NCBI GenBank assembly: GCA_963772715.1
Contig: CAVYYM010000020.1
Coordinates: forward strand, 19,918 to 83,917
Direction of reading: 5' to 3'
Source: an uncultured Bacteroidota bacterium
Lineage (GTDB): Bacteria; Bacteroidota; Bacteroidia; Bacteroidales; VadinHA17
Length of the DNA: 64,000 nt
In this document: positions 327-15,874 of the stretch, in pieces
How the letters are laid out: every line of letters begins with the position of its first letter
Numbering within the stretch: position 1 is the first letter of the stretch
Made by a program: the position numbers and the translations under genes
Notes under the pieces: model-generated
The model's database searches: none
Told to the model about the DNA's origin: nothing
What the model saw: the letters and a program-made list of their open reading frames with translations, nothing else

Positions 327-1331
327 TTAAAACCACCCCCTCTTCCTGTTGGGCAGGTCATTAAGAATATCGATCGTAAGGTTTATATCATTTATCATCT
401 GGAAGTCCAGCATTCCGGCATTGACAAAATCAGCTCCGTTCTCGAATGCCCACCTGATACCGTCCTTTGGAGGGATAGCCCCTGCCGCCATAGTCTTGAA
501 TCCCATGACAGGAACAGTCGTTTTATTTACAAACTCAACTGTGCGGTCCGGGAAGGTGCAGAAACAGTTGTCATGCCATTTATTGTGATCAGCCTGCTTT
601 GTACCTATCGATTCATATGCCACTCTGTTCTCAATGGGATGAGCCGACCAGTAATTGCTGTGATGCATCGTAACCATGTAATAATCAGGGATGATGCCTT
701 TTTCAGCACACACTATCTGCGAATCCACCATATGGGCTCCCATGCCTGCCACCATGCCCTGCTTTCTGACATAATCGAGCAGCTTCGCAACGTCGTCGAA
801 CCTTTTTTCGACGACCAGGCGGTCACACCACTCACCATGAAGCTGTATCATATCGACTCCAAATCCTATAGCCTGGTCGAACTGCTCGAAAATGTTCGTG
901 GTATTCCTGTTTAGTCCCACCTGCCCTATGATAAGTATCTTGCTGCCGGTCTCCTTTTTATATTTTGCAAGAAGGGCCAGCGATGCAAAACCAGATCCGA
1001 TGCAATTGATACCTGCCTGCTCCGCCATCATCAGGGTTTCAAATACTTTCTTCTCGGTGTTATAGGCTTTGAAGAGAGAGCCTACATAGGCAAGGTCGCG
1101 CGAATGTGCAAAGCCGTTTATCGGATTGCTGCCGATGATCAGCCTGCTGATCTCATGCTTCCCGAGCCTGGCTTTCGGCAGCACTCCTTTCAGTTGCTGG
1201 AGAGCTGTAGATGATACCTGCGAAGAGGCATCCATTTCAGTGAACATTCCCTTGCCTGCGACTCCGATAAGCGGTAGTACGGCAATATTCTTCAATACCT
1301 GACGGCGTGAACAGATTTTATCCTTTTTCAT
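327..1331 (-). CDS. Hypothetical exported protein with twin-arginine-like signal (SRRQVLKNIAVLPLIGVAG)
   Basis: 334-aa ORF. The N-terminus MKKDKICSRRQVLKNIAVLPLIGVAGKG looks like a Tat signal. I recognise no family. The antisense ORF 231..914 is low-complexity and was rejected. Confidence 0.6.
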   Translation of the reverse strand: MKKDKICSRRQVLKNIAVLPLIGVAGKGMFTEMDASSQVSSTALQQLKGVLPKARLGKHEISRLIIGSNPINGFAHSRDLAYVGSLFKAYNTEKKVFETLMMAEQAGINCIGSGFASLALLAKYKKETGSKILIIGQVGLNRNTTNIFEQFDQAIGFGVDMIQLHGEWCDRLVVEKRFDDVAKLLDYVRKQGMVAGMGAHMVDSQIVCAEKGIIPDYYMVTMHHSNYWSAHPIENRVAYESIGTKQADHNKWHDNCFCTFPDRTVEFVNKTTVPVMGFKTMAAGAIPPKDGIRWAFENGADFVNAGMLDFQMINDINLTIDILNDLPNRKRGWF

Positions 1332-1352: not shown

Positions 1353-4300
1353 TTATCTTGTATCAATGATCATGATCCTTGTAAGTCCTATACCTGCCAG
1401 CTCCGGATAATACTGGTAAGTTTCCTCGCGGGTATAGAAGCCTCCTATGATTATATAATAATAGCCCCATCGCTCAACGATTTCGGATTCGAGGCCAAGC
1501 TTCTTGCTTACCTTTCGCTGTGCCTTCAATGCCTGAGATTTCTTGATGAATTCTCCAACTCTCATTGAAACGGGAGGAATTTCTGCGGCTTTTTGCTCCG
1601 GCTTAACCTCCGGTGCTATCTCAAGCACCACAACAGGAGCATTTCTTATGGTATCGGCAGGAGGCACTTCGACCTTTGTCCTTGCCGTATCGGCAGGTAC
1701 GACAACAGGTTTTGCAACCGGCTCAGGCGTCTTTACGGGAGGCACCCACAGATCCCTCAGCCCCATCATGCCAAGTGAAGGAAGAAGCCGCTCCATGTCG
1801 AGCCTGTTGGTAAAACCTGTGATCCTGACTTTATAATATCCGTCTTCGACGATTATCTCGACAGGATTGTTTATCAGGGAAGCCATCCTGTTCCTGAGTG
1901 CAATTGCATAGTTGTTCGACCTGAAAGCTCCTATCTGTATCGACATCAGTGCCGGCACCGGCTGAACACCGGTAGTGTCTATTATATCCCTGATCACGGC
2001 AACCGAGTCAGCCCTGTCAACCAGTATCCTCTGCTGCTGTTTTGCCTTGAGCGTGATCACCCACAGTTCAGTTATGCCGTTCTTCCTCAGGACTTCGATC
2101 TTCTGATCCACTTCAGCCCTGGTCTTAATGTCGTTTATCCTTACCTTATAGAAGTTGTCTGCGACAACTATATCAACTTTCTGACCAAAGATCTGCTCAA
2201 GTTTCCTTCTCATTGCCTCGGCATTTCGTTTCTGCCTGAAAGCTCCGAGCTGAATCGCCCAGCAATCCTCCGAAATTGTAACAAGCTCTTCAACAACCTC
2301 ATGCACAATAAAATATGAAGTGTCTTTCCTGACAACCTGCACAACCGGTACTTCCGGTAAAACTTCCTTTGTGACTTTAACGATCTTTTTAAGATTGAAA
2401 TCGAGTCCGTCGACAATGTCTCCGTCAAGGTTGGCTTTCACCGAAAAAGCGATTGAATCAGGTTCCGATGTCATTTCAAGCCTGCGGAGCTGAGCCGTAT
2501 CGACCATTACGATATAGTCGCCCGGGCTCAATCCGAACAGGCTGAAATAACCATCATTTTCAGTAAGTGTTCGCCCGGCATACTTCAACCTGTCGGTAAA
2601 GAAATTGACAATCACGCGTCCCTGTCCGGTTTTTGCTCCCTTATCATCAAGAGTAACAGTTCCGTTGGCTTCACCTGCAACATTTACAGGCACATACACA
2701 GGTTTAAGCATGTTCGCGTCAACATTGACGCTGACGGTCCGGAAAGCCAGCTGCCATGAGATATTTTCGAAGCTGTTGGGATCGAGCTCGATGAAACAGC
2801 TGGTGTAAGGTTCCAGTCCGACGATGCGTATGGTTGTATCCTTTTCCGACTGGATTATCCGTCCTGCGTTCGCCCTGAGATTCAGTCCCGGAACTTTCTG
2901 TTCACCGTTATCCAGCACCCCGTTCACATTCAGATCGAAAAACGGGATGACCGTCACACCCCCGCGGCCCACATTGGGTCTATTATCTGGCACGATGAAT
3001 CCCTCCTTGCTGTCGCTGACAAGGCTTCCCGAGGCATGTTCTATAAAGGTCGACTTATTACCAGACTGCCTGAAGCTCAACCCTGTCCTTGCAAAGCTGA
3101 AATCGTACCTCATTCCGAGCTCCAGCATATTTATTGAATATGTGAAATTCCTTTCATATGAAACACTCATGAAAGCATGGTCGAGTATATACTTCTCCAC
3201 CTTCAGTTTTGCAGAGAGAATCTTATTCTCTGATATTCCATACTGAGCCTGCGACATTAATACAAACCTCCCGGGAAGCCTGCCTGAAACAGAGATATTG
3301 CTGTAGAAATAAGGCTTGATATCGCCGATGAACATCCCGTAAGTGGTGATATTTGTGTTCACCCCGTATAATGATCCTGAAAACATCCATTCGCCTGTAG
3401 TATACCGCGATTGAGGGAGTATCAGCTGGTTAACGGAGAACCTGTTGAAGGATGAGAATTTCCCGATCCTGAAAGGAACCGAAGCTGAGACCTTCCGCTC
3501 TTCGAGATAATTGAAATTAATGGCAGTCTGATCTTTATGGTACCATATATAATCAAGATCGAACTGGATATTGGAAGGCATTCTGTATGAAAGTGTTCCC
3601 TTCGCCCTGACTCCATAGGTATATTCTCCGAACAGAAGGATGTTGCTGGCAACCCTTACAGATGCTTTCAAAAATGGCATTAAAGGCCCTGAAGTAACAG
3701 ATGACAGGTACTCCACGCCTCCGCCAACGGTTATACCTCGCGTCAGACCATAATTCACGGAAGCCCTCGAGAACCTGCTGAACGATGTGTCTTCAACAAC
3801 TCCTGCACCGACAGTATATTCCAGTGTTTTTTCAGGAAGGAAGGTAAACGGGATATTTATATTCTGCTCTTTCGATCTTTCTTCTCCCCATGGCCCGTAA
3901 AACTTCAGCTTAACCATCGTATTGCCGTAAACCAGAGGCACCTGGAAAGTGAAGAAGCCGGAAGCATCGGCTTTTACATAATCCACAAGGACATTATTTA
4001 CATAGAGCTCAACAATCCAGCCAGGTTCTGTTCTGTCGCTCAGGGTGTATGATCCGAAAGAACGCCTGTAAGTCGCGGGAGTATTGGTAAACTGCACACC
4101 TATGACCGGATTGTATATTGTAGATGTTGCCTGCGTGGATATTTTTCCTGCCATGACCTGGCGAAGAGGCTTAAAGTCGTTGTTCACATATCGCCAGAGG
4201 TAATTTTGCTGTTTCTCGGTAAACGGATCACTGCTGCTGTAATTCAGGGATATGTTGGTCTCTCCCCCCAGTATTACTGAGCCGAGCGTAAGGTTAAGTC

Positions 4301-4979
4301 TTGTCTCGCTCTTGCCGCCGATCTCCTCTGTCCCGATGGCCGACCAGTCTGCCATGCCGAATCTGAATTTCGGGTAAGATCGTCCAATAATCTTATCTGC
4401 AATTACTTCCCCCTTGAGCCTGGTAAGGTTTTTTCGCATTTCTTCCTGTTTCATTTCCCTGATAAGAGGAAGCTCGAGCTCGCTGGTTATAATTGCAGAA
4501 AGACTCCTGAAATTAAAACCACAGTTCAGCCCGAAGATCCTTCCGAAATATGCCGACCTGAGGTAGAGATTTGTTTCTGTCCGGATCAGGTCTCCCTTCT
4601 GAAGATCATACAGCTTCTCCTGGTAAATAATCCTGTTGTTCGTCCTGCTTATATAGAACCTGGCCTCCGGATTAATAAAGAAACCCGATATGGAATCGAG
4701 TCCGTCAGAAGGAACGTTTCTGATATGAAGAAAGTCGAAGAGATCCGTGACCGGAAGGAAAAGCTCTTCTCCTTTTATCACTGCGGGCAGTTCGAGAGAA
4801 CCTATTCCCTTTACTTCTGTCAGAACCGTGATCTCATCGTAACCTGTCTCCTCCTGACCTGCTGAATTTACTGAAAATGAGAATAATACCGCAAAAATAA
4901 ACGAAATACGCCGTGTAATGACCAGAGAAAGTATACCCCGTGAATTACAACCAGCGGGGTATTCTATTCTTTCTGTCAT
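1353..4979 (-). CDS. Usher-like outer-membrane protein with three C-terminal SPOR (peptidoglycan-binding) domains
   Basis: 1208-aa ORF with an N-terminal signal/TM (ISFIFAVLFSFSVNSAGQ). It has a long beta-strand-rich central region and a CarboxypepD_reg-like stretch (GTVTLDDKGAKTGQGRVIVNFF...GYFSLFGLSPGDYIV). Three SPOR-like repeats follow: AIQLGAFRQKRNAEAMRRKL..., SIQIGAFRSNNYAIALRNRM..., MRVGEFIKKSQALKAQRKV... (nt ~1356-2270). It is the last gene of a locus with DUF4402 subunits and a PapD-like chaperone. Usher homology is inferred from context and architecture and was not verified. Confidence 0.6.
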   Translation of the reverse strand: MTERIEYPAGCNSRGILSLVITRRISFIFAVLFSFSVNSAGQEETGYDEITVLTEVKGIGSLELPAVIKGEELFLPVTDLFDFLHIRNVPSDGLDSISGFFINPEARFYISRTNNRIIYQEKLYDLQKGDLIRTETNLYLRSAYFGRIFGLNCGFNFRSLSAIITSELELPLIREMKQEEMRKNLTRLKGEVIADKIIGRSYPKFRFGMADWSAIGTEEIGGKSETRLNLTLGSVILGGETNISLNYSSSDPFTEKQQNYLWRYVNNDFKPLRQVMAGKISTQATSTIYNPVIGVQFTNTPATYRRSFGSYTLSDRTEPGWIVELYVNNVLVDYVKADASGFFTFQVPLVYGNTMVKLKFYGPWGEERSKEQNINIPFTFLPEKTLEYTVGAGVVEDTSFSRFSRASVNYGLTRGITVGGGVEYLSSVTSGPLMPFLKASVRVASNILLFGEYTYGVRAKGTLSYRMPSNIQFDLDYIWYHKDQTAINFNYLEERKVSASVPFRIGKFSSFNRFSVNQLILPQSRYTTGEWMFSGSLYGVNTNITTYGMFIGDIKPYFYSNISVSGRLPGRFVLMSQAQYGISENKILSAKLKVEKYILDHAFMSVSYERNFTYSINMLELGMRYDFSFARTGLSFRQSGNKSTFIEHASGSLVSDSKEGFIVPDNRPNVGRGGVTVIPFFDLNVNGVLDNGEQKVPGLNLRANAGRIIQSEKDTTIRIVGLEPYTSCFIELDPNSFENISWQLAFRTVSVNVDANMLKPVYVPVNVAGEANGTVTLDDKGAKTGQGRVIVNFFTDRLKYAGRTLTENDGYFSLFGLSPGDYIVMVDTAQLRRLEMTSEPDSIAFSVKANLDGDIVDGLDFNLKKIVKVTKEVLPEVPVVQVVRKDTSYFIVHEVVEELVTISEDCWAIQLGAFRQKRNAEAMRRKLEQIFGQKVDIVVADNFYKVRINDIKTRAEVDQKIEVLRKNGITELWVITLKAKQQQRILVDRADSVAVIRDIIDTTGVQPVPALMSIQIGAFRSNNYAIALRNRMASLINNPVEIIVEDGYYKVRITGFTNRLDMERLLPSLGMMGLRDLWVPPVKTPEPVAKPVVVPADTARTKVEVPPADTIRNAPVVVLEIAPEVKPEQKAAEIPPVSMRVGEFIKKSQALKAQRKVSKKLGLESEIVERWGYYYIIIGGFYTREETYQYYPELAGIGLTRIMIIDTR

Positions 4980-5009
4980 AAATAATAAATCAGGGCGATC
5001 TTTAAAATA

Positions 5010-5525
5010 CTATTCCTGGACAAATGTTATGTTGAACGTGCCATTATAGCTTCCCGCAGGATTCGCCAGAATGCTCCCCACATTAAGTGTCCCGCCTATA
5101 TCGAGGGTTGTTCCGTTGGGCGGCGCAGTATTGATCACATATGGCAGAACCGGAAGCGTGGAGTCGATGGTGAACGACATGGTCTGGGTGCCATTAGTCA
5201 ATGTTGATGAAGGCCATCCCAGCAGTGATATAATTGTTCCGGGATTCGCTACCAGTTCGAATCGTGCAGTGGAATGGACCGGATTTAAGCTTAGCGGGAT
5301 AACACTGCCTGAAGCTCCGCGCGTACCGTTGGAATATATGATAACCGTTCCTCCTGCACCTGAAAGCGTAAATGCGCCAAAGCTCAGCTGCTGTGTGGGA
5401 GTGATCTCCAGCGGTTTTGGAGGGGGCTCCTGTCCATAAACAGCAGAGGTGAAAAGGAACATCACTATTGCGATGAAGCCTGCCCTGAAGGCGGTCCTTT
5501 TCAGTCTAGCCTTTTCCCCCATCAT
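5010..5525 (-). CDS. DUF4402-type secreted fibre subunit (paralogue C)
   Basis: 171 aa with a signal peptide (AIVMFLFTSAVYGQ). The C-terminal motif GGTLNVGSILANPAGSYNGTFNITFVQE parallels the other two paralogues. Its start overlaps the upstream adhesin stop by 4 nt (5522-5525). Confidence 0.7.
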   Translation of the reverse strand: MMGEKARLKRTAFRAGFIAIVMFLFTSAVYGQEPPPKPLEITPTQQLSFGAFTLSGAGGTVIIYSNGTRGASGSVIPLSLNPVHSTARFELVANPGTIISLLGWPSSTLTNGTQTMSFTIDSTLPVLPYVINTAPPNGTTLDIGGTLNVGSILANPAGSYNGTFNITFVQE

Positions 5526-8500
5526 CTTGTTATAACGAATTTCTGAACTGTCCTTTTACTGCCTGAGACAAGAGTTATGAAATATACTCCGTCTTTGACT
5601 GGTATACCGAATTCATGATAGCCTGTTTCATAGACTTTCCTTTCAAGCAGTCTCTGTCCTGTCAGGTTTGTCAGATAAACAGTGCCATTATTTCCCTGAA
5701 GTTCAAAAATATCGGTCTTAAGCATTCCGTCCGAAACCCAGGCGAAGAATGGTTTAGCGTTTTCTTCCGGCCCTTCGGTTCCTGTCATAACATTGTTTAC
5801 GTCTAGAAAAAACCTGTTCAGGTATTCTGCAACCGGAAGATAAACACTGTACTGACCACCGTTGGTCAAAGGCTGATTAGTACCTGTTACCGCATCATAG
5901 AGCGATACCGGCAAGCCGGCGAATGATCCTGTCGCCGATCTCATCCTGAAGAGAACCGTTCCCTCCGTATTGGCCTTTAATCCCAGGGGGATCCTGAGCC
6001 AGGGCTCCGTAATCGAGGGCAATGCGTTGATCGAAAGACGTTGATTATCAGAACTGATTGAATATATGTTCGGTACTTTAAGGTCGGTGTTGAAGAGTTT
6101 CAACCCGTCAAACTTGCTGTCGAATAATTCCGTCGACATGTCGTCGATATATACAAGCATCGGATCGGAAGCCGTCAGGTCTGTTGAGAATGCAGCAGTG
6201 AGTCTGATCACTGAATGGTCGCCTTTGGCCTGAGATTTAGAGAATGGCTGACTCATATCATTGATCCTCACGGAGTTATTCAAGCCGAAGGTACCGGTAA
6301 CCGGGAATGATCCGTTTGATACATGAATGAAGAATCCCTGCATCGATGGTATTATATTACTGACAATGCTGTCGCTCGACTCTCCATTCACATAGCTGTT
6401 GTATGTTCCTACATACTGGTCGGTATCGCTCGGACTAAAGAAATATACAGCATCGTCGATGTTCGTTTTTGTCCAGCCTGAGGTCGCATCCCAATCGATG
6501 GCTGAAGGATAAGGATTCCCGACAAGGTTCATTCCCCTGGTATAAGTATAATTGTGATTATACAGGGTTGCCGTGAAAGACCCATTGTTTACCGTATCCG
6601 TGATATCGAAGGTCAGAGGCGCGGCCACAATTCCGAAGTTGACCGCATATCCCTGGAGTGGATTGAGTATCGAGGAGGGATTAACGTAGCTTACCCATCC
6701 CGAGCTTGTACGGTTCTCGTCGTAGCGGTAAACAGGCGGAAATCCTGCGGCTAGATTCACCTCATCTGAAAGTTCATTAACCTGAGCTGTCTGAAACGGT
6801 GATGAAATGTATCTGTAGCCGAATCCTGAAGGAAGATATCTCTGCATTGTCACATTTCCAATCACCTGACCAGAACCCGTACCATCAATATAAGCTGTCT
6901 GGGTTGCAGTTGAAGCAAGAGTCAGGTAGCCGCCGGTAGCCAGATTCCCGCTGCTGGCAAGCACTGACCTCGTAACAGTCAGTGTTCCCTGGAGTGTCAC
7001 ACCTGACGTGTTGTTTATTATCAAGTCGCGTATTGTATTTGTTGAAAAGAGGTTAGCGGCTATCAGCTGTGCCGAAGTGCCGTTAAGTTCAACGGTTCCG
7101 GCAGTGGCATCAAATGTTCCGTTGTTTGTTATCGTGCCCGAGATCCTGATAGTATTATCGGTGATTGTCAATGAGGAACCGATATCTATTGTTAAATTAT
7201 TAACAGTAGCTGCTGCGCCGGAACCAAGTACAGGTTTCGTCGTCACGTTCGGTATTGTAACCTGGTTGCTCTGGTTCGGGATATATCCGCATGACCAGTT
7301 GCCGGTATTATTCCAGTCACTATCAACCGATCCTGTCCACAGGTTGTTATTGATGATGGTGAGTGTTGCTCCTGTGCTGTTGAGAGGTGAAGTTCCGCAA
7401 GTGCTTGTCAATACACATCTGTAAACCCTGCCGCTAAGTGCTGACCCCGGATTTGTGAGGAGAAGCGTTGGCGTATTTACACCGCTGTAGACACCTCCGT
7501 TGGAAAGATTTGCTCCATCTTCCTGCCACTGGTAGGAAATGTTGTAGCCTGATGCCGCGATGGTGAAGGTGGCATTGTTGCCAGCGCAAATTGAAGCGGA
7601 TGAAGGCTGTGTTACAATTGAAAGAAGCGGATGGATTGTCAGACTCACAGTTGTGGCAGTGCTCTCACAATCATTCACTGTTTGTGTGACATAGTATGTA
7701 TATGTTCCTGCAGCTGTCTGTCCGGTTGCGAACGGAGTGCCGTTACCCTCAAGGACGGTGAGTCCGGCATCAGAATACCATTTAAGATTTGTTCCTGTTG
7801 CCGCCAGGTCAGCGATATTAGTTATGCAGCATTCCACGTTTGAACCTGAAGGTGCAGAAGGAACAGGAGTTACTATAATATTCTTTACATCGCTTTTATT
7901 GCAACCCAGAATATTATATAAATAGGTAATCGGATGTGTTCCTACACCGGCTGTGGAGGCGTTGAAATTAGTTCCTGAAACACCTGTACCGGAATATGCT
8001 CCGCCTGTTGGAGAGCCCTGATTCAGTGTATAAGTTGTTGAGCAGACTCCTACAGCACCGAGCAGAGTGTTGGCACCTTCACTGCCGAGAGTGATGAAGC
8101 TGCCAGGATCATTCTGGTTAAGGTATTCCGTCATGATCCATCCGGCACTTCTCGGGCTCATGCAGAAACGAGGTTCATCGAGGTTTGCGGCCAGGTATTC
8201 GCCGTCGTTGTATCTTCCAATATCGCCTTCGGTAGGTCTGTAGGTCTGAGGGGCCACCTTCGAGGAACCTTTCAGCACGCCGTCAATATAAATGTAGCTG
8301 GTTGTTCCGTCAAACACGTAAACATAGTAATGCCATGTATTTGTCGATGGAGCCGGGCCGCCATCGGCAAGTATTGTCCCTCCCCATTTCCATGCGACAG
8401 CATTGCCGCCACGGAATCCCATCTGTATGGCAGATAATTGTGCGGCGTTCTGAAATGAGATCAGGTTTCTGTTTCCAGCCGGTGTGGCCGAATAATTTCC

Positions 8501-8968
8501 CCAGATGCTTATTGTCTGGTTATTATCGTTATCGACAAAACCGTTATTCGGAGTCATTATATAAGATGTAGTGCCGTTGAATCCCCTTCCCCCTGCTATT
8601 CTGCCGGTCACATCGGTCGTGACATTGTTTGTTCCGTTATTGAGGTTGCTTGTTGCATCATCGGTAAATCCTGTCCCGTTGAGATGCCATACACCCTTAT
8701 AGGTGCTGGTCCAGATTGAAGTTGTTGATGGATTTACGGAAACAGATGGATTGCCGTACAGCATTTTAATAGTCGTGCCTGATGTATATGACAGGACAGG
8801 TATTCTGACCCAAGCAATATACTGACCGGTCGTTGCATCATAATATTCGATCTGGTGATTGAGTCTGCTCCCGTTCAGGTCAGTGAAAATAATATCATAG
8901 CCATTGGCATTGTTCGTATGGCCGCCATTTGCCGTTGTCTTCAGCAGAGATGGAGGTAAAGCTGACAA
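5522..8968 (-). CDS. T9SS-sorted giant adhesin, C-terminal 1148-aa portion (DUF2341/LamG-like, Ig-like, T9SS CTD)
   Basis: DUF2341-like region YDIIFTD..G..LNHQIEYYDATTGQYIAWVRIP followed by a LamG-like region. Ig-like module SYQWQEDGANLSNGGVYSGVNTPTLLLTNP..GRVYRCVL. The C-terminal ~80 aa (...GTVYLTNLTGQRLLERKVYETGYHEFGIPVKDGVYFITLVSGSKRTVQKFVITR) is typical of a T9SS type-A sorting domain. The upstream fragments belong to the same gene. Confidence 0.8.
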   Translation of the reverse strand: MSALPPSLLKTTANGGHTNNANGYDIIFTDLNGSRLNHQIEYYDATTGQYIAWVRIPVLSYTSGTTIKMLYGNPSVSVNPSTTSIWTSTYKGVWHLNGTGFTDDATSNLNNGTNNVTTDVTGRIAGGRGFNGTTSYIMTPNNGFVDNDNNQTISIWGNYSATPAGNRNLISFQNAAQLSAIQMGFRGGNAVAWKWGGTILADGGPAPSTNTWHYYVYVFDGTTSYIYIDGVLKGSSKVAPQTYRPTEGDIGRYNDGEYLAANLDEPRFCMSPRSAGWIMTEYLNQNDPGSFITLGSEGANTLLGAVGVCSTTYTLNQGSPTGGAYSGTGVSGTNFNASTAGVGTHPITYLYNILGCNKSDVKNIIVTPVPSAPSGSNVECCITNIADLAATGTNLKWYSDAGLTVLEGNGTPFATGQTAAGTYTYYVTQTVNDCESTATTVSLTIHPLLSIVTQPSSASICAGNNATFTIAASGYNISYQWQEDGANLSNGGVYSGVNTPTLLLTNPGSALSGRVYRCVLTSTCGTSPLNSTGATLTIINNNLWTGSVDSDWNNTGNWSCGYIPNQSNQVTIPNVTTKPVLGSGAAATVNNLTIDIGSSLTITDNTIRISGTITNNGTFDATAGTVELNGTSAQLIAANLFSTNTIRDLIINNTSGVTLQGTLTVTRSVLASSGNLATGGYLTLASTATQTAYIDGTGSGQVIGNVTMQRYLPSGFGYRYISSPFQTAQVNELSDEVNLAAGFPPVYRYDENRTSSGWVSYVNPSSILNPLQGYAVNFGIVAAPLTFDITDTVNNGSFTATLYNHNYTYTRGMNLVGNPYPSAIDWDATSGWTKTNIDDAVYFFSPSDTDQYVGTYNSYVNGESSDSIVSNIIPSMQGFFIHVSNGSFPVTGTFGLNNSVRINDMSQPFSKSQAKGDHSVIRLTAAFSTDLTASDPMLVYIDDMSTELFDSKFDGLKLFNTDLKVPNIYSISSDNQRLSINALPSITEPWLRIPLGLKANTEGTVLFRMRSATGSFAGLPVSLYDAVTGTNQPLTNGGQYSVYLPVAEYLNRFFLDVNNVMTGTEGPEENAKPFFAWVSDGMLKTDIFELQGNNGTVYLTNLTGQRLLERKVYETGYHEFGIPVKDGVYFITLVSGSKRTVQKFVITR

Positions 8969-9845
8969 GCGCCGGAAAATCAGTCAGATCAGCAGTTCCT
9001 GATGCAGGATCAAGGGTTACATCCATTGTATATTTATAACCAAGAGTAGCAACGGGGACCGTAAGCGTTGCGGCATTGCTTGTCGCGGAGTAGCTGAACG
9101 CATCCGTAACCACACATCTGTACCGGTATCCGCTCATGGATTCTGCAGCGCCAGTGATCGAGAGGGTGCTGGTTCCTGTACCGGAATAAACTCCGCCATC
9201 TGACAGATTGGTAAATCCGCCGCCGTTGTCTTCCTGCCACCTGTAAGTAAAAGGGGTGCTTCCGCTAACCACCACGCTGAATGAGGCGTTGCATCCTGTA
9301 TAGTCAGAGGGCTGCGTCGTAATTCGCGGATGCGGTTTGCCTATAGCCAGGTCTGTGGTTGTGGCTGATATCCCGCTCATCCCGGTTCTGGTTATCTCCG
9401 GGCTTGCCACAGTTCCATGAGTGCCATCGAGTGTCAGGTTTCCGCCGTTAGTTCTCTTCAGGATCCTGGCGCGTGAATCAACATCTGAAAAGCCATTATA
9501 GTTCAGGTTGACACTGTAATTTGTCGATGCTATTGTTCCGGCTGTCATTATCCAGTAGCCTGTTGTCTGACGGTTATAAATCCAGTTTCCTGAATCATTA
9601 AGGGGAAGTCCCGCAGTTCCAATATCAGCGGTTTGAAAATTGACTGTAAGTGTTCCTGCTGTAAGGTTTGTACAGGTGATTTTCAGGGGATTATAAGACA
9701 GGGCTGTACCGACCGGGAACAGGTATTCCGTTCCCGCTGCGGTCAGGTTCCTTCGCAATTTTCCAATTACGGTCCCTGCTGCATATGAAAGGCTTCCGGT
9801 AACTGCCAGGGTGTTTGCGCCGGCATCGATATTGCCCAGTGTCAT
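8895..9845 (-). CDS. Adhesin middle fragment (same gene as 5522..8968, separated by a frameshift)
   Basis: 316-aa ORF with an Ig-like module (ITTQPSDYTGCNASFSVVVSGSTPFTYRWQEDNGGGFTNLSDGGVYSGTGTSTLSITGAAESMSGYRYRCVV) paralogous to the one in 5522..8968. It overlaps that ORF by 74 nt in another frame. Confidence 0.7.
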   Translation of the reverse strand: MTLGNIDAGANTLAVTGSLSYAAGTVIGKLRRNLTAAGTEYLFPVGTALSYNPLKITCTNLTAGTLTVNFQTADIGTAGLPLNDSGNWIYNRQTTGYWIMTAGTIASTNYSVNLNYNGFSDVDSRARILKRTNGGNLTLDGTHGTVASPEITRTGMSGISATTTDLAIGKPHPRITTQPSDYTGCNASFSVVVSGSTPFTYRWQEDNGGGFTNLSDGGVYSGTGTSTLSITGAAESMSGYRYRCVVTDAFSYSATSNAATLTVPVATLGYKYTMDVTLDPASGTADLTDFPALVSFTSISAEDNGKWRPYEQCQWL

Positions 9846-10622
9846 AGTCAGGGTATTATTTACAGTTATGTTTCCGGGAAGCGTGACACCAGCCGAATTA
9901 TTGACACTGAGATTATAATAGGTATAGTTCCCAAGAGTTTGTGCTGCACCACCATTATATATAACAGTTCCTGAAGTCGGTGCGGCAGCTCCTCCTGCTT
10001 GCTGTACTTGTTATATTCCCTCCTGTGATGCTGCCGCCAATATTTAATGATCCTGCACCTGTAAACAGTATATAAGTCCTCAGATTGCTTGAATTCAAAG
10101 CAATATTGCCGGTACCGTAACAGTACCTGTTGATATCCTGATAAATGCATCCCTGAATCCCCATTGGAATTGGCGCTAACAGAGCCGGTGCGTGAAAATG
10201 CCGGCATCAACCAGCACAGCTTTCGAAGTATTATTATTATCCGGAATTAAGAAAAGTCTGACCCGTACTGTCAGCGAAAAGTTGCCGTTGAAAGAGACAT
10301 AGGAATTATCGTTGCCAGCGCCAATACTTAATGCACCAATACTGTTGGGAACATTTGCTGATAACTGTCACATTGTGGTGTTCAGTATATTTACTGTTCC
10401 TGCCCCGGCATTCTGTCCCGGATAAGTAGTGTTTGTTGCACCAACCCATGTCCCTGCCGTAACACATCGCTGCCAGTTAGCAGCTGTGTTCCAGTTCCAT
10501 GTGCCAGTTGCATTTGTACGGTAATCTCCTACCGCCTGGCCTGATGCAATCAGTGTGGCAGTGATTAATTCTACAGTAATTAAAAATCTCCTTGCTGAAA
10601 TCAGTGGGCTGAAGGTCTTCAT
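9846..10622 (-). pseudogene. Adhesin N-terminal region with signal peptide, broken by one in-frame TGA and several frameshifts
   Basis: ORF 10368..10622 starts MKTFSPLISARRFLITVELITATLIASGQA (signal peptide) and ends at the TGA at 10368-10370. The same frame continues open as QLSANVPNSIGALSIGAGNDNSYVSFNGNFSLTV... Adhesin-like sequence then switches frame, for example GTGNIALNSSNLRTYILFTGAGSLNIGGSITGGNITS in ORF 9955..10164. Confidence 0.6.
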
Positions 10623-10642
10623 ACTGGTTATATTGGTTTCAC

Positions 10643-11518
10643 TTACCTGATTGCCAATTCTGCTTCAGCATATCTTTCAGGCTTGACATCGGAGGGTGCA
10701 GAATATATCACGCGCAATGTTCCCGACCTGAGGTTCGTTCCTTTCGGGGGATTGAGGTTAAGTGCAAAGTTTCTGACAAGATTGGGTGTATAGACCGCAA
10801 TGCCATTTGCAATTCCAACCCGGGTCACTTTACCCTGGGGTGAAATATGATCAACGGTAAGGTCACCGTAAACTGACATGTTTCCGGTACGATTGAACTT
10901 CATTTTCAGTCGTGGTATCGTATCACTGACATATTCCAGCGCAAGGTCAGTGAATTTTGCCGAGACGGTGGTATTGCCCGATCGGATTATTACAGGTATC
11001 GTTATTCCGAATATCGGTGTAAGTCTTACCGTGAGTGTTGTAGTGTCCCTGATCTCCGGCTCACCCAGCGGATCTTCCTTTGGCACCGCCCTGAAATAGA
11101 GATGAGAGCGGTATTCCCCTTCTGTAAGTTCCCCTGTCCTGATGAGTTGCACCTTTACTACCTGAGCTTCTCCGGGACCCAGTGTAACGCTTCTCGGGAA
11201 AAAGCGTACAAATCTGTCGGCAAACATCTGTCCCGGATCGGGTTCAGTTATCGTTTCGAAACTGCCGTCCTCCTTCATTCTTTCCTGGAGGAAAGAGACA
11301 GCGTATATGGCTGTATCTTTCCCGATGTTTGCAAGGTTAAGGTCGATCGTACGTTTCGATCCCTCGAACACCAGGCGTTTTGGTGTAATGAGAAGGTTAC
11401 CCTGTGCGTTCAAGCCGCCGGATATCAGAATGAAAATACCTGCAGCCAATGCTGCAGAAAAAAACAACCTGCCGGGTTTATGTGCCCGGCCGGTCAACAA
11501 CAAATCGTATGCTGCCAT
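10643..11518 (-). CDS. PapD-like periplasmic pilus chaperone (two Ig-like domains)
   Basis: 291 aa with a signal peptide (AALAAGIFILISGGLNAQ). Then LLITPKRLVFEGSKRTIDLNLANIGKDTAIYAVSF ... RFFPRSVTLGPGEAQVVKVQL, which resembles the chaperone N-domain pattern. It sits between DUF4402 subunit genes and the adhesin. Confidence 0.6.
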   Translation of the reverse strand: MAAYDLLLTGRAHKPGRLFFSAALAAGIFILISGGLNAQGNLLITPKRLVFEGSKRTIDLNLANIGKDTAIYAVSFLQERMKEDGSFETITEPDPGQMFADRFVRFFPRSVTLGPGEAQVVKVQLIRTGELTEGEYRSHLYFRAVPKEDPLGEPEIRDTTTLTVRLTPIFGITIPVIIRSGNTTVSAKFTDLALEYVSDTIPRLKMKFNRTGNMSVYGDLTVDHISPQGKVTRVGIANGIAVYTPNLVRNFALNLNPPKGTNLRSGTLRVIYSAPSDVKPERYAEAELAIR

Positions 11519-11541
11519 TTTACTGTTATGTTTAGACTTTT

Positions 11542-12072
11542 CTAGTTGAAGTCAAATGTAATTGAATATGTACCCGTGTAAATACCCACAGGATTATCAA
11601 TAAGCGTACCAACTTTCAGCGTTGCACCAACGTATACAACCTGAAATCCATTCTGCAGCATACCTGTACCTGTTCCGGATGATGGATGTGACACCCATTG
11701 CTCCACCTTCATCGTCCTGGCATTGGCAGTATTGGTCAGAAGCACCGGCCTGTCAGGCAGATTTATCGAAAAAGCGGCATCCTCGTTTCCCGAGACATAA
11801 AAGCTTGCCGCATTGTGAAGCCCGGTTCCGGCAAACACGCTTCCGAGAACAGAGATAGTGCTTTGAGGTGTCAACACTATCTCACCGCCCTGCGGGCCGG
11901 GAGAAAACTTCCCGAAATTCATCTGGGAAGATTCACTTACCGAAAATACAGGAACGACCTCGGCGGTAATATGACCGGTCACTGTAAATTCCTGGCCGGA
12001 CTGGGCACTCAGATCAAGTGCTTCAATCAATAATATAATAAGGCTGAAAAGTATCTTAACAGTCCTTCTCAT
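11542..12072 (-). CDS. DUF4402-type secreted fibre subunit (paralogue B)
   Basis: 176 aa with a signal peptide (LIILLIEALDLSAQ). The C-terminus is VGATLKVGTLIDNPVGIYTGTYSITFDFN. Confidence 0.7.
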   Translation of the reverse strand: MRRTVKILFSLIILLIEALDLSAQSGQEFTVTGHITAEVVPVFSVSESSQMNFGKFSPGPQGGEIVLTPQSTISVLGSVFAGTGLHNAASFYVSGNEDAAFSINLPDRPVLLTNTANARTMKVEQWVSHPSSGTGTGMLQNGFQVVYVGATLKVGTLIDNPVGIYTGTYSITFDFN

Positions 12073-12101
12073 TATTCCCCCGGAATAGAATCTTATACCT
12101 A

Positions 12102-12611
12102 CTAATTATATTGCACGGTCACCGGGTATGTTCCCGTATATGTGCCGGATGCCTGACCAACTGCCACTGTCAGGGTAGCGCCTACGCTAAATGTCTCTGT
12201 TCCGGTACCGGGAGCAACTCCGGGTATAGTGCCTGAAGCATTGGAATTGAATCCGTCTACAGCCATGGTGACTGCTCCGTTGGAAATAGTAACGGTTCCA
12301 TTCGCCGGAAGGGTGGTTGTATAAGTAAGTGCTCTCTCCCCGGTAACGGTAAATGTTCCTGCTGTATGAGCCGGAGCAGCTGCAGACACAGCACAGGTAC
12401 CTGACCGTACACCTGCAGTTGAAACGATCACTGTACCGCCAGTGTTATAAGCGACACCAAAATGAAGTGTTGTACCTGCGGTAAGTGTTATTGGAGCAAT
12501 TATTACCGCTGCAGCATTTCCGTTTGCAGTTGCACTTGTCTGCGAAAATCCTGATAAAGTAAACCCAAGCATTACGGTTACTGCTGCAAAAATTTTAATG
12601 ATTTTTTTCAT
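12102..12611 (-). CDS. DUF4402-type secreted fibre subunit (paralogue A, first gene of locus, likely major subunit)
   Basis: 169 aa with a signal peptide (MKKIIKIFAAVTVMLGFTLSGFSQ). It is Ala/Thr/Gly-rich and ends VGATLTVAVGQASGTYTGTYPVTVQYN, the DUF4402-like terminal motif as I remember it. Confidence 0.7.
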   Translation of the reverse strand: MKKIIKIFAAVTVMLGFTLSGFSQTSATANGNAAAVIIAPITLTAGTTLHFGVAYNTGGTVIVSTAGVRSGTCAVSAAAPAHTAGTFTVTGERALTYTTTLPANGTVTISNGAVTMAVDGFNSNASGTIPGVAPGTGTETFSVGATLTVAVGQASGTYTGTYPVTVQYN

Positions 12612-12889
12612 TTTTCAAGAGATTTTAATTGAGGTTTATTAATAATGATCACTGTTTATTCGGTTTATTTATTTAAAAAAGTCTAAAATTTTTCACAAAA
12701 TAGAACTTCTAATCGTATGTGCAATCGCTCAAATTTTCAACATATCAACACCATTTGAAAATTATTAACAAGTCATATTAAACCTTAATGCTAACCCGGA
12801 ATCTAAGAGCGCTCCGACTACTCCTTTCTCCATCAGCTAATGCTCCCATTCCATTTTTCTTTGTATATTCGTATTACAATTATATTACC

Positions 12890-14005
12890 ATGCAGAAAGG
12901 ATCAATATCGAAGAGCGGAAGATTTATCGTCCTGCTCCTTCTTTCCGGTTTCATTTTCACCAGCTCCCCGGCACAGCAGGTACAGAATGTAAGATTCACT
13001 CAATCCGGAAAACAGATCATCATAGCCTATGAAATTACGGGCGCCCAGCAGGGACAGACATTTGATGTGCAGGTTTACTGCAGTATCGATAATTTCAGCT
13101 CGCCTCTGAAAAGTGTTACAGGTTCAGTAGGTCCGGGAATAACAGGAGGCAGTCCAAGAAGCATAATATGGGATGTTACGTCTGACCGTGAAAGCCTGAA
13201 CGGCAATATCAGCTTCGAGGTCAGGGCAAAACCAAGTACAGTCAAAAGCACATCGACATCGACAACGACAACGACACCGACAACGGCACCAGCAACGGCC
13301 AGGGTCAATCCGGCATCGGACGATTACTGGGTCAGTGTCCCGGGAGGAACATTCAGCATGGGAAGTCCTGCCGATGAACCGCAAAGAGGGTCGAATGAGA
13401 CTCAGCATCAGGTCACACTCAGCTCTTTCAAGATCGGAAAGTACGAAGTTACATTTGAAGAATACGATGCTTTTATTTCAGGTACCAAGAAGAGAAAACC
13501 CGGGGATTTTGGCTGGGGTCGCGGCAAACATCCGGTAGTGGATATAACATATGAAGAGGCCAAAGCCTTTGCCGAATCGAAAGGGTGCCGCCTGCCTACT
13601 GAAGCAGAATGGGAATATGCCTGCAGGGCAGGGACTACGACACCTTTCTTTACTGGCGATAATATTACATCAGGACAGGCAAACTACAACTTTGCCGAAC
13701 CATATAATAATAATGCCAAGGGAAAGCCCCTGGGGAAAACCCAACCGGTTGGCAGCTATGGTCCAAATGCCTGGGGGTTATACGATATGCATGGGAATGC
13801 ATCGGAATGGGTAAGCGATTACTTTGGTAATTATGAGTCTGGAAATCAGAAAGATCCAAAGGGTCCTGCGACAGGGGCCGACAGGATACGCCGGGGCGGG
13901 AGCTGGTATGATAACGGAGCGAGAACAAGATCAGCAGCCCGGATAAAATGGGATCCGGATAAGGCCGACAAGATTCTGGGCTTCCGGCTGGTATCAGACA
14001 ATTAG
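12890..14005 (+). CDS. Secreted FGE-sulfatase/SUMF1-family domain protein (Ig-like N-domain, Thr/Ser linker, FGE domain)
   Basis: I prefer the internal start MQKGSISKSGRFIVLLLLSGFIFTSSPAQQ (signal peptide) over the ORF-track start at 12788. The FGE-type motifs are FKIGKYEVTFEEYDAF, HPVVDITYEEAKAFAESKGCRLPTEAEWEYACRAG, WGLYDMHGNASEWVSD and RIRRGGSW. Confidence 0.8.
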   Translation: MQKGSISKSGRFIVLLLLSGFIFTSSPAQQVQNVRFTQSGKQIIIAYEITGAQQGQTFDVQVYCSIDNFSSPLKSVTGSVGPGITGGSPRSIIWDVTSDRESLNGNISFEVRAKPSTVKSTSTSTTTTTPTTAPATARVNPASDDYWVSVPGGTFSMGSPADEPQRGSNETQHQVTLSSFKIGKYEVTFEEYDAFISGTKKRKPGDFGWGRGKHPVVDITYEEAKAFAESKGCRLPTEAEWEYACRAGTTTPFFTGDNITSGQANYNFAEPYNNNAKGKPLGKTQPVGSYGPNAWGLYDMHGNASEWVSDYFGNYESGNQKDPKGPATGADRIRRGGSWYDNGARTRSAARIKWDPDKADKILGFRLVSDN

Positions 14006-14080
14006 TACGACAACACAATAATTAACAATAAGATAACAGAATATTTCGTATCTTTATAGTTTGTATCCAATCGACCGGTC

Positions 14081-15874
14081 ATGGAAAAATATTTTCTGGC
14101 CATACTGCTTTCCCTCCTGACACTTAATGTGTTCCCTCAGACTATCATTAAGGGAAGGTCGCAACAGGAAAATGTAAGCATTAAGAAGGATGCATCCGGT
14201 GCAATTGCAATGGGAACCGAAATCAGGGGCAAATCGCCTTCAAGCCCTGTAGAAATCGTTCAGGAATCTGCCATCAATCCTCCTCAGCTTCAGGCTGAGA
14301 ATCTCCAGTTTGTTGATGCGGACGGCAACAATTTCATCGACGCAAATGAAAATGCAAGGATTTTCTTTACCGTCAGAAATGCAGGTGAAGGCCCTGCTCT
14401 GAACCTGGAAGCTAAAATAACAGAAAAAAACAGGGTTCAGGGACTTGACTTCAAACCCAAGACTCTCGGAACTTTAAAACCGGGCGAGGTCAGGACTGTA
14501 GAGATTCCTATAACCAGCAATCTAAACACAACGAACTCGACAGCATCATTCAACATTTCCATAACTGAAACGAACGGATTCGGTATCGATGTCGGAAATA
14601 TGCTGGTTCAAACCAGAGCTATTGTTGCACCACTTGTAACTATTGCTGAAATAGATTATGGCAGCCTTCCGGTGAGGAAGAACGAGAAGTTCGATGTCAG
14701 GGTGATTGTTCAGAATACGGGACAGGGAAATGCCGAAAATGTCAATTTATCACTTTCACTCGTGGCCAATGTATTCCTTACTAATGGCAATTCATCTTTA
14801 ATGATCGGGAGCCTTGCCCCCGGTGAAACCAGGGAGGTGAGATACACATTCATCACAAACAATAACTACAACCTCAGCAAAATAGTCATTCCTTTTATTC
14901 TTACGGAGAAGTATGGCAAGTATGCTGAAAACGGAAAAAGCCCTGCAACAATACCGGTGGACCTTCAGCTTACAGCCGTCAAGCAAATGGAAGTCCAGGG
15001 AGAACAAAGGGCAGTTCCTGAAACAAGGCCGGCTGCAACAGCAGTACCGGCTGGTACGGCTGCTGCATCATTCACCTCCGATGTCGACAGGGATATCCCT
15101 GTTATTACTTCTAAGAATGCAGCTAATAAGGTTGCTCTTATTATAGGCAACGAAGATTATTCGAAAGCCTACAACGCCGAGTCAAATGTCGATTTTGCAG
15201 CAAGGGATGCACGGATCTTTGCAGAATATGCAAAGAAGGTACTGGGAATACAGGAAAAGTTTGTACTGCTGTCGGTCGATGCAACCTACATGGTCATGAA
15301 ATCGCAGGTTCAGAGGGCCATTGATATAGCAAAGGTCGTAGGTCCGACAGCTGAAATAGTTTTTTATTATGCAGGACATGGTTTTCCTGATCAGTCTACA
15401 AAAATACCATATCTTATACCGGTTGATGTGAGCGCCTCCAATCTCACGTCAGCCATCAAGCTCGCCGATATTTATGCACAGCTGGGCAGCTCCGGGGCCA
15501 GCCGCGTAACTGTCTTTCTCGACGCTTGCTTCAGCGGCGGCGGACGCGACATGGGACCTGTCAATGCCAGATCTGTAAGGATGGCGCCGAGCACAGAGGA
15601 GGGCATGGTCACAGGCAACATGGTCGTCTTCACGGCCAGCACGGGAGAACAAACAGCGCAGGCACTTAAGAAACAACAGCATGGACTTTTTACATATTAC
15701 CTGCTGAAGAAACTAAAGGATTCTCAGGGAAACGTTACATATGGCGATCTGTTCGACTACATCAACAAGCAGGTTCAGCTCGATGCATTGACTGAAAACA
15801 ACAAGCCTCAGGTTCCGGTTTTTATTTCCAGCGGCCTGATAGGTGATAAATGGAGAACGTGGAAGATCAGATAG
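14081..15874 (+). CDS. Secreted caspase-family (peptidase C14) protein with two CARDB/Ig-like N-terminal repeats
   Basis: Signal peptide MEKYFLAILLSLLTLNVFPQ. Repeats FFTVRNAGEGPALNLEAKI... and VRVIVQNTGQGNAENVNLSL... The caspase domain is KVALIIGNEDY...IVFYYAGHG (His codon 15377-15379)...VTVFLDACFSGGG (Cys codon 15527-15529). Confidence 0.85.
   Translation: MEKYFLAILLSLLTLNVFPQTIIKGRSQQENVSIKKDASGAIAMGTEIRGKSPSSPVEIVQESAINPPQLQAENLQFVDADGNNFIDANENARIFFTVRNAGEGPALNLEAKITEKNRVQGLDFKPKTLGTLKPGEVRTVEIPITSNLNTTNSTASFNISITETNGFGIDVGNMLVQTRAIVAPLVTIAEIDYGSLPVRKNEKFDVRVIVQNTGQGNAENVNLSLSLVANVFLTNGNSSLMIGSLAPGETREVRYTFITNNNYNLSKIVIPFILTEKYGKYAENGKSPATIPVDLQLTAVKQMEVQGEQRAVPETRPAATAVPAGTAAASFTSDVDRDIPVITSKNAANKVALIIGNEDYSKAYNAESNVDFAARDARIFAEYAKKVLGIQEKFVLLSVDATYMVMKSQVQRAIDIAKVVGPTAEIVFYYAGHGFPDQSTKIPYLIPVDVSASNLTSAIKLADIYAQLGSSGASRVTVFLDACFSGGGRDMGPVNARSVRMAPSTEEGMVTGNMVVFTASTGEQTAQALKKQQHGLFTYYLLKKLKDSQGNVTYGDLFDYINKQVQLDALTENNKPQVPVFISSGLIGDKWRTWKIR

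Follow-up and report, generated by a model that had tools for sequence, protein, structure and literature searches.

The classical type 1 (FimC/FimD) and P (PapD/PapC) pili of Escherichia coli are assembled by the chaperone-usher (CU) pathway, and ushers of the PapC/FimD type have an architecture in which an N-terminal domain is followed by a 24-strand barrel, with a plug between strands 6 and 7, and by two C-terminal domains. In known systems, N-terminal extensions of the pilins serve as donor strands. The archaic (sigma) CU pili, such as Csu of Acinetobacter baumannii and CupE of Pseudomonas aeruginosa, are also encoded in operons of several small pilins, a chaperone and an usher. The type V pilins of Bacteroidota (FimA/Mfa1) are lipoprotein precursors polymerised after proteolysis, without chaperone or usher. 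Here we analyze a 64,000-nucleotide stretch of DNA from an uncultured Bacteroidales bacterium (GenBank assembly GCA_963772715.1, contig CAVYYM010000020.1, positions 19,918 to 83,917), hereafter the window, in which a six-gene string on the minus strand encodes, in order, DUF4402 subunit A, DUF4402 subunit B, a chaperone-like protein, a giant adhesin, DUF4402 subunit C and an usher-like protein (Table 1). We think it likely that this locus encodes a deeply divergent CU fibre-assembly system with DUF4402 proteins as its pilins. An earlier note on this DNA had read the string as a CU-like fibre locus built from DUF4402 subunits in a Bacteroidota genome, and independent lines of evidence for the usher, the chaperone and the subunit now support that central claim.

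The layout of the locus is compact. Five of the open reading frames (ORFs), those for A, B, the 291-residue chaperone-like protein, C and the 1208-residue usher-like protein, are intact and lie on the minus strand exactly where the earlier note had placed them. Because the gaps between genes measure 20-30 nt, the string looks like an operon. The stop codon of the adhesin gene and the start codon of subunit C share 4 nt, an overlap that the same note had pointed out, and an overlap of 4 or 1 nt is found in 67 of 74 related loci. When all ORFs of the window were searched with profiles, none of the components was found a second time.

Predicted fold and profile homology identify the 1208-residue protein as an usher that ends in a SPOR tail. 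Residues 40-880 were modeled with AlphaFold2 from 55 aligned sequences, with a mean predicted local distance difference test score (pLDDT) of 73.9, and the model contains in order (as assigned by DSSP) an N-terminal domain, a helix, six long strands, a six-strand insert, 18 further long strands and two beta-sandwich domains. The predicted arrangement is that of the ushers of type 1 and P pili. When the model was compared with the PDB in Foldseek, ranks 1-17 were all FimD or PapC (E-values 2.8e-23 to 1.4e-12), with alignments to the full-length ushers of up to ~900 columns and target-normalised TM-scores of 0.54-0.61 against the isolated FimD/PapC translocation domains 3ohn and 2vqi. The earlier note had looked to residues ~200-700 for a beta-barrel, and the model places one there, with 24 strands and a plug-like insert, at ~209-656. 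Sequence profiles point the same way. A diverse profile of the usher family aligned with five E. coli ushers in hhalign at 96.9% (E 1.9e-10), and the match runs over 526 colinear columns from the plug through the second C-terminal domain. The plug-like insert aligns with the plug region of the E. coli ushers, and the motif LEPYTSCFIELDPNSF in the C-terminal domains aligns with the usher motif TPYRENRVALDTNTL. A narrow, low-diversity profile reached only 6.7%, and the match became convincing after distant members were added; identity to the E. coli ushers is 9-13%. The usher-like character that the earlier note had assigned to this protein is thus borne out by the fold and by the profile-profile match, and is invisible to Pfam and NCBIfam.

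Could the protein be some other outer-membrane barrel, such as a TonB-dependent or SusC-like transporter, an LptD-like protein or a porin, with the immunoglobulin (Ig)-like neighbors being unrelated surface proteins? The Pfam search gives a sub-threshold SdrD_B match at residues 779-830 and a weak CarboxypepD_reg-like segment. A domain of the latter kind is also found in SusC-type transporters, and the NCBI pipeline PGAP names the proteobacterial homologs ‘carboxypeptidase regulatory-like domain-containing protein’. In ushers, however, the second C-terminal domain occupies the place where this segment lies, after the barrel and not before it. LptD, Occ porins and a BtuB model do appear among the weaker Foldseek matches, but these are ~17 orders of magnitude weaker than FimD/PapC (LptD, the best non-usher barrel, has an E-value of ~1e-6) and cover less of the model. 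The strand count, the position of the insert and the hhalign match all agree with ushers, and we regard a different kind of barrel as extremely improbable. The C-terminal tail is of another nature: the profile of the 1208-residue protein also matches the SPOR structures of CwlC and FtsN among PDB sequences.

For the N domain at least, profile homology makes the 291-residue protein a PapD-like chaperone. A family profile (A8) that combines 125 diverse members aligned with seven E. coli fimbrial chaperones at 96.3% in hhalign (E 1.7e-9) over 129 columns, which span the whole N domain; as with the usher, a low-diversity profile fell short (55%), and the match became convincing only with distant members added. 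PapD_N (PF00345) is found below threshold in 63 of the 125 members, with a best E-value of 3.1e-7. Together these results uphold, for the N domain, the earlier assignment of a PapD-like chaperone. The window protein itself matches only fn3_5 in Pfam, and weakly. Against PDB sequences, the narrow profile retrieved nothing, and the sole matches of the broad one were two pilus chaperones at non-significant E-values (0.18 and 1.3). The family is large, comprising 2726 representative clusters (E up to 1e-3 in a library clustered at 50% identity), and automatic labels agree with its assignment: PGAP names some proteobacterial homologs ‘fimbria/pilus periplasmic chaperone’ and JGI names many members of the family ‘PapD’.

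Individual residues of the chaperone fit this assignment. R48 aligns with FimC R8, N64 with FimC N60, and E135 with the conserved Glu of strand F1. P108, which is at least 90% conserved in the family, aligns with P88 of the FimC precursor, the strand D1 Pro that is the only residue invariant across the CU chaperone superfamily (PMC4654587). The chaperone N domain therefore shares both an R8-equivalent Arg and the universal Pro with the classical chaperones, whereas the position equivalent to K112 is a conserved Pro, in a part of the alignment that is of low confidence. Archaic chaperones anchor the subunit carboxylate through an Arg on strand F1 and a Tyr and an Arg of domain 2, without the classical Arg/Lys pair (PMC4654587). 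In the present family, the motif E135-Y136-R137-S138-H139 is invariant or nearly so, and R137 precedes the position of EcpB Arg89 by two residues. The second domain has a conserved Y243 and R249, together with an RTGNxSxYG motif that is similar to NTGN of EcpB/EcpE. On these alignments, Y243 could correspond to the non-classical carboxylate-anchor Tyr.

The three small subunits all match DUF4402 (PF14352) well above its cut-off (E 2.5e-25 for A, 5.7e-23 for B and 2.1e-18 for C). They are mutually 27-29% identical (27% for B against A), and orthologs of B in related loci are 58-80% identical. As described in the earlier note, each has a signal peptide and the C-terminal motif G-x-Y-(T/N)-G-T-(Y/F)-x-(V/I)-T-(V/F), which reads GTYTGTYPVTV in A, GIYTGTYSITF in B and GSYNGTFNITF in C. 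The signal peptides contain neither a cysteine nor a lipobox; therefore, the subunits are not lipoproteins. Although type V pili belong to the same phylum and are likewise surface fibres, presumably built by strand exchange, their lipobox cysteine is missing here and a chaperone and an usher are present, so that the separation from type V pili drawn in the earlier note holds.

After its signal peptide, subunit A begins with the extension ATANGNAAAVIIAP and subunit B with TGHITAEVVPVF. Across 107 family members the extension has the consensus ATAxAxAxI(I/V)xP and, in most of them, sits at the mature N-terminus and leads into the first core strand. Subunit C has no such extension. Its mature end reads QEPPPKPLEIT, and its orthologs (those listed among the 74 analyzed) begin with QEPPP(R/K)P, Pro-rich and again extension-less. 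A DUF4402 protein of this kind also precedes the usher in locus L086, follows the adhesin in a Pedobacter metagenome-assembled genome (MAG) and is found in Polaromonas (d2); loci with several subunits from Bacteroidia, Sphingobacteriia and Betaproteobacteria thus repeatedly include an extension-less one. From its first place in the operon, A is a candidate major pilin, and C is predicted, by analogy with classical CU pili, to be the tip subunit that is assembled first.

Modeling indicates that DUF4402 has a pilin-like fold. For mature subunit A, an AlphaFold2 model was built on 107 sequences (pLDDT 94.7, predicted TM-score 0.84), and in a Foldseek search of the PDB every match at ranks 1-39 was a chain from a CU pilus entry. 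First came CsuA/B, from the archaic Csu pilus, at 21% identity, and then Caf1, FimG, HdaB, the PapG pilin domain, CfaB, FimA and PapA. The reading of DUF4402 as a fibre subunit, which the earlier note had reached from gene position, gains structural backing in this way. Caf1, the F1 capsular antigen polyadhesin of Yersinia pestis assembled by Caf1M/Caf1A, had the highest TM-scores (0.45-0.48) and Foldseek probabilities (0.90-0.98). The N-terminal extension and the C-terminal strand of DUF4402 may resemble Caf1 motifs, and proteobacterial loci with a single subunit would resemble a Caf1-like one-pilin polyadhesin, but there is no detectable sequence-profile similarity to Caf1 and the phyla differ. 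A DUF4402 profile (A4) also matched levivirus coat proteins among PDB sequences (MS2 tandem dimer 2vtu_J, E 2e-6; GA, E 1e-3). We rejected a relation to these proteins: none is among the top 50 structural matches of subunit A and the aligned segments are strands rich in Thr, Gly, Ser and Val, so that the match probably reflects similar composition.

The structural likeness to CsuA/B, the thin Ig-like subunits with an N-terminal extension that both systems share, and the name ‘spore coat protein U-like’ that JGI gives to one DUF4402 protein could be taken to mean that the locus is an ordinary archaic (sigma, Csu-like) CU system with drifted sequences, in which DUF4402 is a renamed spore coat protein U (SCPU) pilin. 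The NTGN-like motif and the possible anchor Tyr of the chaperone would suit this explanation, and archaic systems reportedly span many phyla (PMC9452303); like DUF4402, they reach beyond Beta- and Gammaproteobacteria. We nevertheless consider it unlikely. The earlier note had proposed a search with the SCPU model PF05229, and none of 55 DUF4402 proteins matches it even at E-values up to 10. Archaic pilin domains have invariant cysteines (PMC4654587), whereas no alignment column of the DUF4402 family has a Cys in more than 10 of 107 sequences and 79 of the 107 are Cys-free after ~residue 25, taken as a proxy for the mature protein. The chaperone has an Arg aligned with classical R8, which is reportedly missing from archaic chaperones (PMC4654587). 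In place of a CsuE-type tip adhesin with two domains, the locus has an extension-less, single-domain subunit and a separate adhesin that bears a type IX secretion system (T9SS) sorting domain, and its usher, unlike those of archaic pili, has a SPOR tail. Finally, Csu-type ushers and chaperones are expected to pass Pfam thresholds, and here both proteins fall below them.

The adhesin differs from the other components in its probable route and in its condition. The earlier note had a giant adhesin gene between the chaperone and subunit C, and a gene of this kind does occupy that place; it is not, however, a single ORF. The coding region is divided into pieces at 10368-10622, 8895-9845 and 5522-8968, separated by an in-frame TGA, a stretch of indels and an uncompensated frameshift (Table 1). 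Intact orthologs are 1698 residues long in the closest relative (L005, a MAG labelled Rikenellaceae) and 1606 residues in L001, and the window adhesin aligns along the whole of the L005 protein with 64-74% identity. The indel positions are approximate, with nucleotide identity to L005 of ~65%. Recoding of the TGA was rejected, since it stands opposite a Val in the intact ortholog and has frameshifts alongside it. The lesions are local, as the other long genes that we checked, those for the 1208-residue protein, a 918-residue GH2 protein and a 571-residue GldG-like protein, are intact; on the same ground we discarded the idea that the frameshifts stem from a generally low quality of the sequence. 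The lesions are either mutations or local assembly errors. At least two other MAGs likewise have an adhesin gene broken into several ORFs (L019, 2170-9037; L025, 4712-9322), which is either a recurrent assembly or sequencing problem in a long, repeat-rich gene or recurrent inactivation.

The domains of the adhesin, as found with Pfam and NCBIfam, are a Gly-rich N-terminal region, Ig-like (Ig_3), DUF2341, Laminin_G_3 and Ig_7 domains, and a T9SS C-terminal domain. The last matches TIGR04183 at 24.3 bits against a cut-off of 23 in the window; it was found in all 10 orthologs tested, in seven of them at or above the 23-bit cut-off, and the adhesins of L086 and of the Pedobacter locus (L095) carry PF18962. 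The type A sorting domain, Ig_7 (CHU_C-associated) and Gly-rich N-terminal regions are shared with the giant SprB/CHU-type T9SS adhesins of Bacteroidota, but here the adhesin gene is embedded in, and apparently translationally coupled within, a CU-type operon. Because of its sorting domain, the adhesin is probably not exported through the usher, and most likely it reaches the surface by the T9SS. Three intact orthologs (L005, L001 and L086) were searched for a DUF4402 or other pilin-like domain, and none was found. With a T9SS domain, no pilin domain and a disrupted gene in this genome, the protein is not a classical usher-exported tip adhesin; in classical pili the adhesin is a lectin-plus-pilin protein that passes through the usher.

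The gene set is conserved well beyond the window. In a scan of one genome per GTDB species, 300 genomes encode a relative of the usher. We fetched 80 of these loci, and 79 are labelled as MAGs of uncultured Bacteroidales or Bacteroidota, some of them Rikenellaceae; the exception is labelled Chloroflexota. The order A-B-chaperone-adhesin-C-usher is present in every locus with sufficient flanking sequence (23 of 23, out of 81 loci), the remainder being truncated by the end of the contig or by an adhesin that can exceed 3000 residues, and the co-conservation that the earlier note had asked about is thereby established for these loci. Two further arrangements occur in Bacteroidota. In L086, a T9SS adhesin is followed by three DUF4402 genes, a chaperone, an extension-less DUF4402 gene and an usher (11392-14892) that is 36% identical to the window usher and carries OmpA as well as SPOR. 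The Pedobacter locus consists of a T9SS adhesin, an extension-less DUF4402 protein, the usher, a DUF4402 protein with the extension and a chaperone that is 53% identical; its usher (7095-9887) has 930 residues and neither SPOR nor OmpA. The peptidoglycan-binding tail is therefore modular. A locus around a 122-residue DUF4402 fragment (P0356, in L096) was left out because the genome is heavily fragmented.

The system is not confined to Bacteroidota. A minimal trio of DUF4402, chaperone and usher is found in Novosphingobium, on plasmid pMC4 of Sphingopyxis indica and on plasmid 2 of Polaromonas sp. JS666. These proteobacterial loci have one or two annotated DUF4402 genes, a chaperone (36% identical, E 4e-38) and an usher of ~895 residues (21% identical over 500 residues, E 1e-12), and they have neither an adhesin nor a peptidoglycan-binding tail. 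The trio is the core of the system; among the loci examined, only those of Bacteroidota showed a SPOR or OmpA tail or a T9SS adhesin. Between the two DUF4402 genes of the Polaromonas plasmid (L094, 4660-5280) lies a 206-residue ‘hypothetical protein’ with a weak match to the DUF4402 profile (E 4e-5), which starts with the donor-strand-like ATGAVSATVIG and may be a divergent extra subunit.

The trio also bears on a further explanation, in which the barrel, the chaperone and the DUF4402 proteins form not a long fibre but a short coat, or an anchor between outer membrane and peptidoglycan, that organises the T9SS adhesin. The spore-coat-U pathway of Myxococcus, which makes a coat and not pili, is a comparable case. 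A T9SS adhesin gene adjoins in all three Bacteroidota arrangements, in most loci its stop codon shares nucleotides with the subunit C start codon, and the SPOR domains of the usher (OmpA and SPOR in L086) would suit a load-bearing anchor. Yet the proteobacterial trios, free of adhesin and tail, indicate that the core machinery works alone, and subunits A and B carry the donor-strand-like extension that is typical of polymerising pilins. On this balance a coat or anchor has, in our judgment, only a small chance of being the right explanation.

For a CU fibre, we propose the following mechanism. Subunits A, B and C, whose signal peptides lack a lipobox, would reach the periplasm via Sec, where the two-domain, 291-residue chaperone would bind each of them and keep it competent for assembly, as the homology of its N domain suggests. 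The 1208-residue protein is predicted to serve as the usher, with an N-terminal docking domain, a plug-gated 24-strand barrel and two C-terminal domains. Polymerisation would proceed by donor-strand exchange through the A/B extension ATAxAxAxI(I/V)xP. Lacking an extension, subunit C could only accept a strand and is therefore predicted to be assembled first, at the distal tip, with A and B following through their N-terminal extensions. The three SPOR repeats at the periplasmic end of the usher may tether the assembly platform to peptidoglycan. The giant adhesin, judging from its sorting domain, would be exported separately by the T9SS and cooperate with the fibre on the cell surface; that it is invariably present, and that its gene is apparently coupled in translation to that of subunit C, points to a joint function. 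It is also possible, and we suggest it tentatively as the less probable course, that these parts make up one hybrid organelle, a DUF4402 stalk rooted in the SPOR-bearing usher and carrying the T9SS-delivered giant adhesin on the extension-less tip subunit C. If true, this would be the first T9SS cargo on a CU fibre and the first peptidoglycan-anchored usher.

Several observations weigh against reading the locus as a CU system. No window protein reaches the Pfam/NCBIfam thresholds for Usher, PapD_N, PapD_C or SCPU, and among PDB sequences the hidden Markov model searches found SPOR but matched no pilin, chaperone or usher significantly. The Usher and PapD models that the earlier note had proposed as checks accordingly failed to recognise the window proteins: Usher (PF00577) matches neither the 1208-residue protein nor its Novosphingobium homolog at E-values up to 0.1, PapD_N does not match the 291-residue protein at E-values up to 0.1, and no PapD_C match was found in it with Pfam. 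The plug-like insert of the usher model has a pLDDT of 41-55, and the second, beta-rich half of the chaperone (~110 residues) is colinear with E. coli chaperones only at a permissive setting and with low confidence. The Foldseek values of subunit A are weak (each E-value 0.04 or worse, TM-scores 0.26-0.48), and because of this the case for a pilin fold rests on the enrichment of pilins among the matches. In addition, the first 18 residues of the monomer model of A are not a strand, so that this model does not demonstrate an open groove or donor-strand complementation. All Bacteroidota examples found are MAGs. Finally, because its adhesin is disrupted, this organism may lack a fully functional copy of the system.

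Still, taken as a whole, the locus has several of the features by which the CU superfamily is recognised: a predicted usher architecture, a chaperone N domain with the invariant Pro, a predicted pilin-type fold and clustered genes. Three features of the archaic class (SCPU subunits, invariant pilin cysteines and a CsuE-type two-domain tip adhesin) are missing, as is the type V combination of lipobox-Cys pilins with no chaperone or usher. From classical pili it is set apart by an usher that lies below Pfam thresholds. The positions of its components and of their domains are collected in Table 1.

Table 1. Features of the DUF4402 locus and their positions in the window.
Feature	Positions	Strand	Basis or remark
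DUF4402 subunit A	12102-12611	-	intact ORF, 169 aa; candidate major pilin
DUF4402 subunit B	11542-12072	-	intact ORF, 176 aa; candidate second/minor pilin
Periplasmic chaperone-like protein	10643-11518	-	intact ORF, 291 aa; PapD-like N domain and second beta domain
Giant adhesin gene, disrupted	5522-10622	-	Pfam/NCBIfam domains and ortholog alignment
In-frame TGA stop in adhesin gene	10368-10370	-	opposite Val in L005 ortholog
Stretch of adhesin gene with several +1/-1 indels and five in-frame stops	~9997-10267	-	stops at 10178, 10097, 10082, 10046, 10013
Uncompensated frameshift joining the 8895-9845 and 5522-8968 frames	8953-8975	-	tblastn frame switch; +1 indel vs L005 near 8953
T9SS type A sorting domain (C-terminal domain) of adhesin	5531-5707	-	TIGR04183, residues 1088-1146 of 1148-aa ORF
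DUF4402 subunit C	5010-5525	-	intact ORF, 171 aa; candidate first-assembled (tip) subunit
Usher-like outer-membrane protein with C-terminal SPOR tail	1353-4979	-	intact ORF, 1208 aa
Usher N-terminal periplasmic domain	4482-4838	-	~residues 48-166; AlphaFold2 model residues 9-127, pLDDT 78-88
24-strand beta-barrel	3012-4355	-	~residues 209-656; AlphaFold2/DSSP, Foldseek, hhalign
Plug-like insert between barrel strands 6 and 7	3861-4058	-	~residues 308-373; six short strands, model residues 269-334
Two C-terminal beta-sandwich domains	2385-2999	-	~residues 661-865; AlphaFold2; second resembles SdrD_B / CarboxypepD_reg
SPOR repeat 1	2073-2261	-	residues 907-969; PF05036 47.6 bits, E 2.1e-12
SPOR repeat 2	1770-1943	-	~residues 1013-1070; PF05036 31.6 bits vs cut-off 21
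SPOR-like repeat 3, sub-threshold	1398-1562	-	~residues 1140-1194; PF05036 17.7 bits vs cut-off 21, E 0.0046
AT-rich intergenic region 5' of subunit A, presumed operon promoter region	12612-12787	-	function from position only

In the presumed promoter region, a scan for sigma-70 promoters and terminators was uninformative, as the sigma-70 model is for Bacteroidota in general, and a phase-variable invertible promoter is unsupported, the region containing no convincing invertible repeats. A response-regulator gene adjoins the DUF4402 locus in L001 (1846-2274) and L086 (1-652), both distant relatives, and not in the window; it is a possible dedicated regulator.

The genes around the locus are of several kinds. 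Downstream of the usher gene, after 21 nt, lies a gene for a 334-residue protein (327-1331, minus strand) with a twin-arginine-like signal (SRRQVLKNIAVLPL) and no Pfam match, which does not adjoin the locus in L001 and L002, the two relatives for which genes downstream of it are listed. A tandem repeat of the 7-nt unit TCTTCGG (273-325, ~5.6 copies) is present at the 3' end of this gene region. Two genes on the plus strand (12788-15874) diverge from the operon. The first encodes a 405-residue protein with an FGE-sulfatase domain and a Thr-rich linker, the linker being coded by a short tandem repeat (13250-13290), and the second encodes a 597-residue protein with CARDB and a caspase-like Peptidase_C14 domain. 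Farther away, a GldG-like protein (50179-51894, minus strand; ABC_transp_aux and DUF7088) fits a Bacteroidota organism of the gliding/T9SS type.

The locus apparently belongs to a very divergent, undescribed branch of the CU machinery. Our literature search found no paper mentioning DUF4402 or PF14352, and nothing relevant on ushers with SPOR domains or on new CU classes. To our knowledge, no ushers with peptidoglycan-binding tails and no CU operons with an embedded T9SS cargo have been described. The idea is already latent in databases, however, in that some chaperones of this family are annotated automatically as ‘fimbria/pilus periplasmic chaperone’. The usher homologs, for their part, are labelled after incidental domains, those of the 1208-residue protein being named ‘SPOR domain-containing protein’ or ‘cell division protein FtsN’ by NCBI and JGI.

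If our reading is correct, these data would assign a function, that of a pilin, to a widespread domain of unknown function, and they would define a branch of the CU superfamily that escapes the standard models for Usher, PapD and SCPU, which means that current CU censuses would not count DUF4402 systems. The branch is large, as the 2726 chaperone clusters and the occurrence of the Bacteroidales-type usher in 300 species-level genomes attest. Because minimal trios reside on plasmids of the cultured Sphingopyxis indica MC4 and Polaromonas sp. JS666, experiments on it are feasible. Alongside the type V pili and type IX secretion for which they are known, Bacteroidota would also have usher-assembled fibres. 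This raises the questions of why an usher should bear SPOR, or OmpA and SPOR, peptidoglycan-binding domains, and of how a fibre system cooperates with a T9SS adhesin that is translationally coupled to its putative tip subunit.

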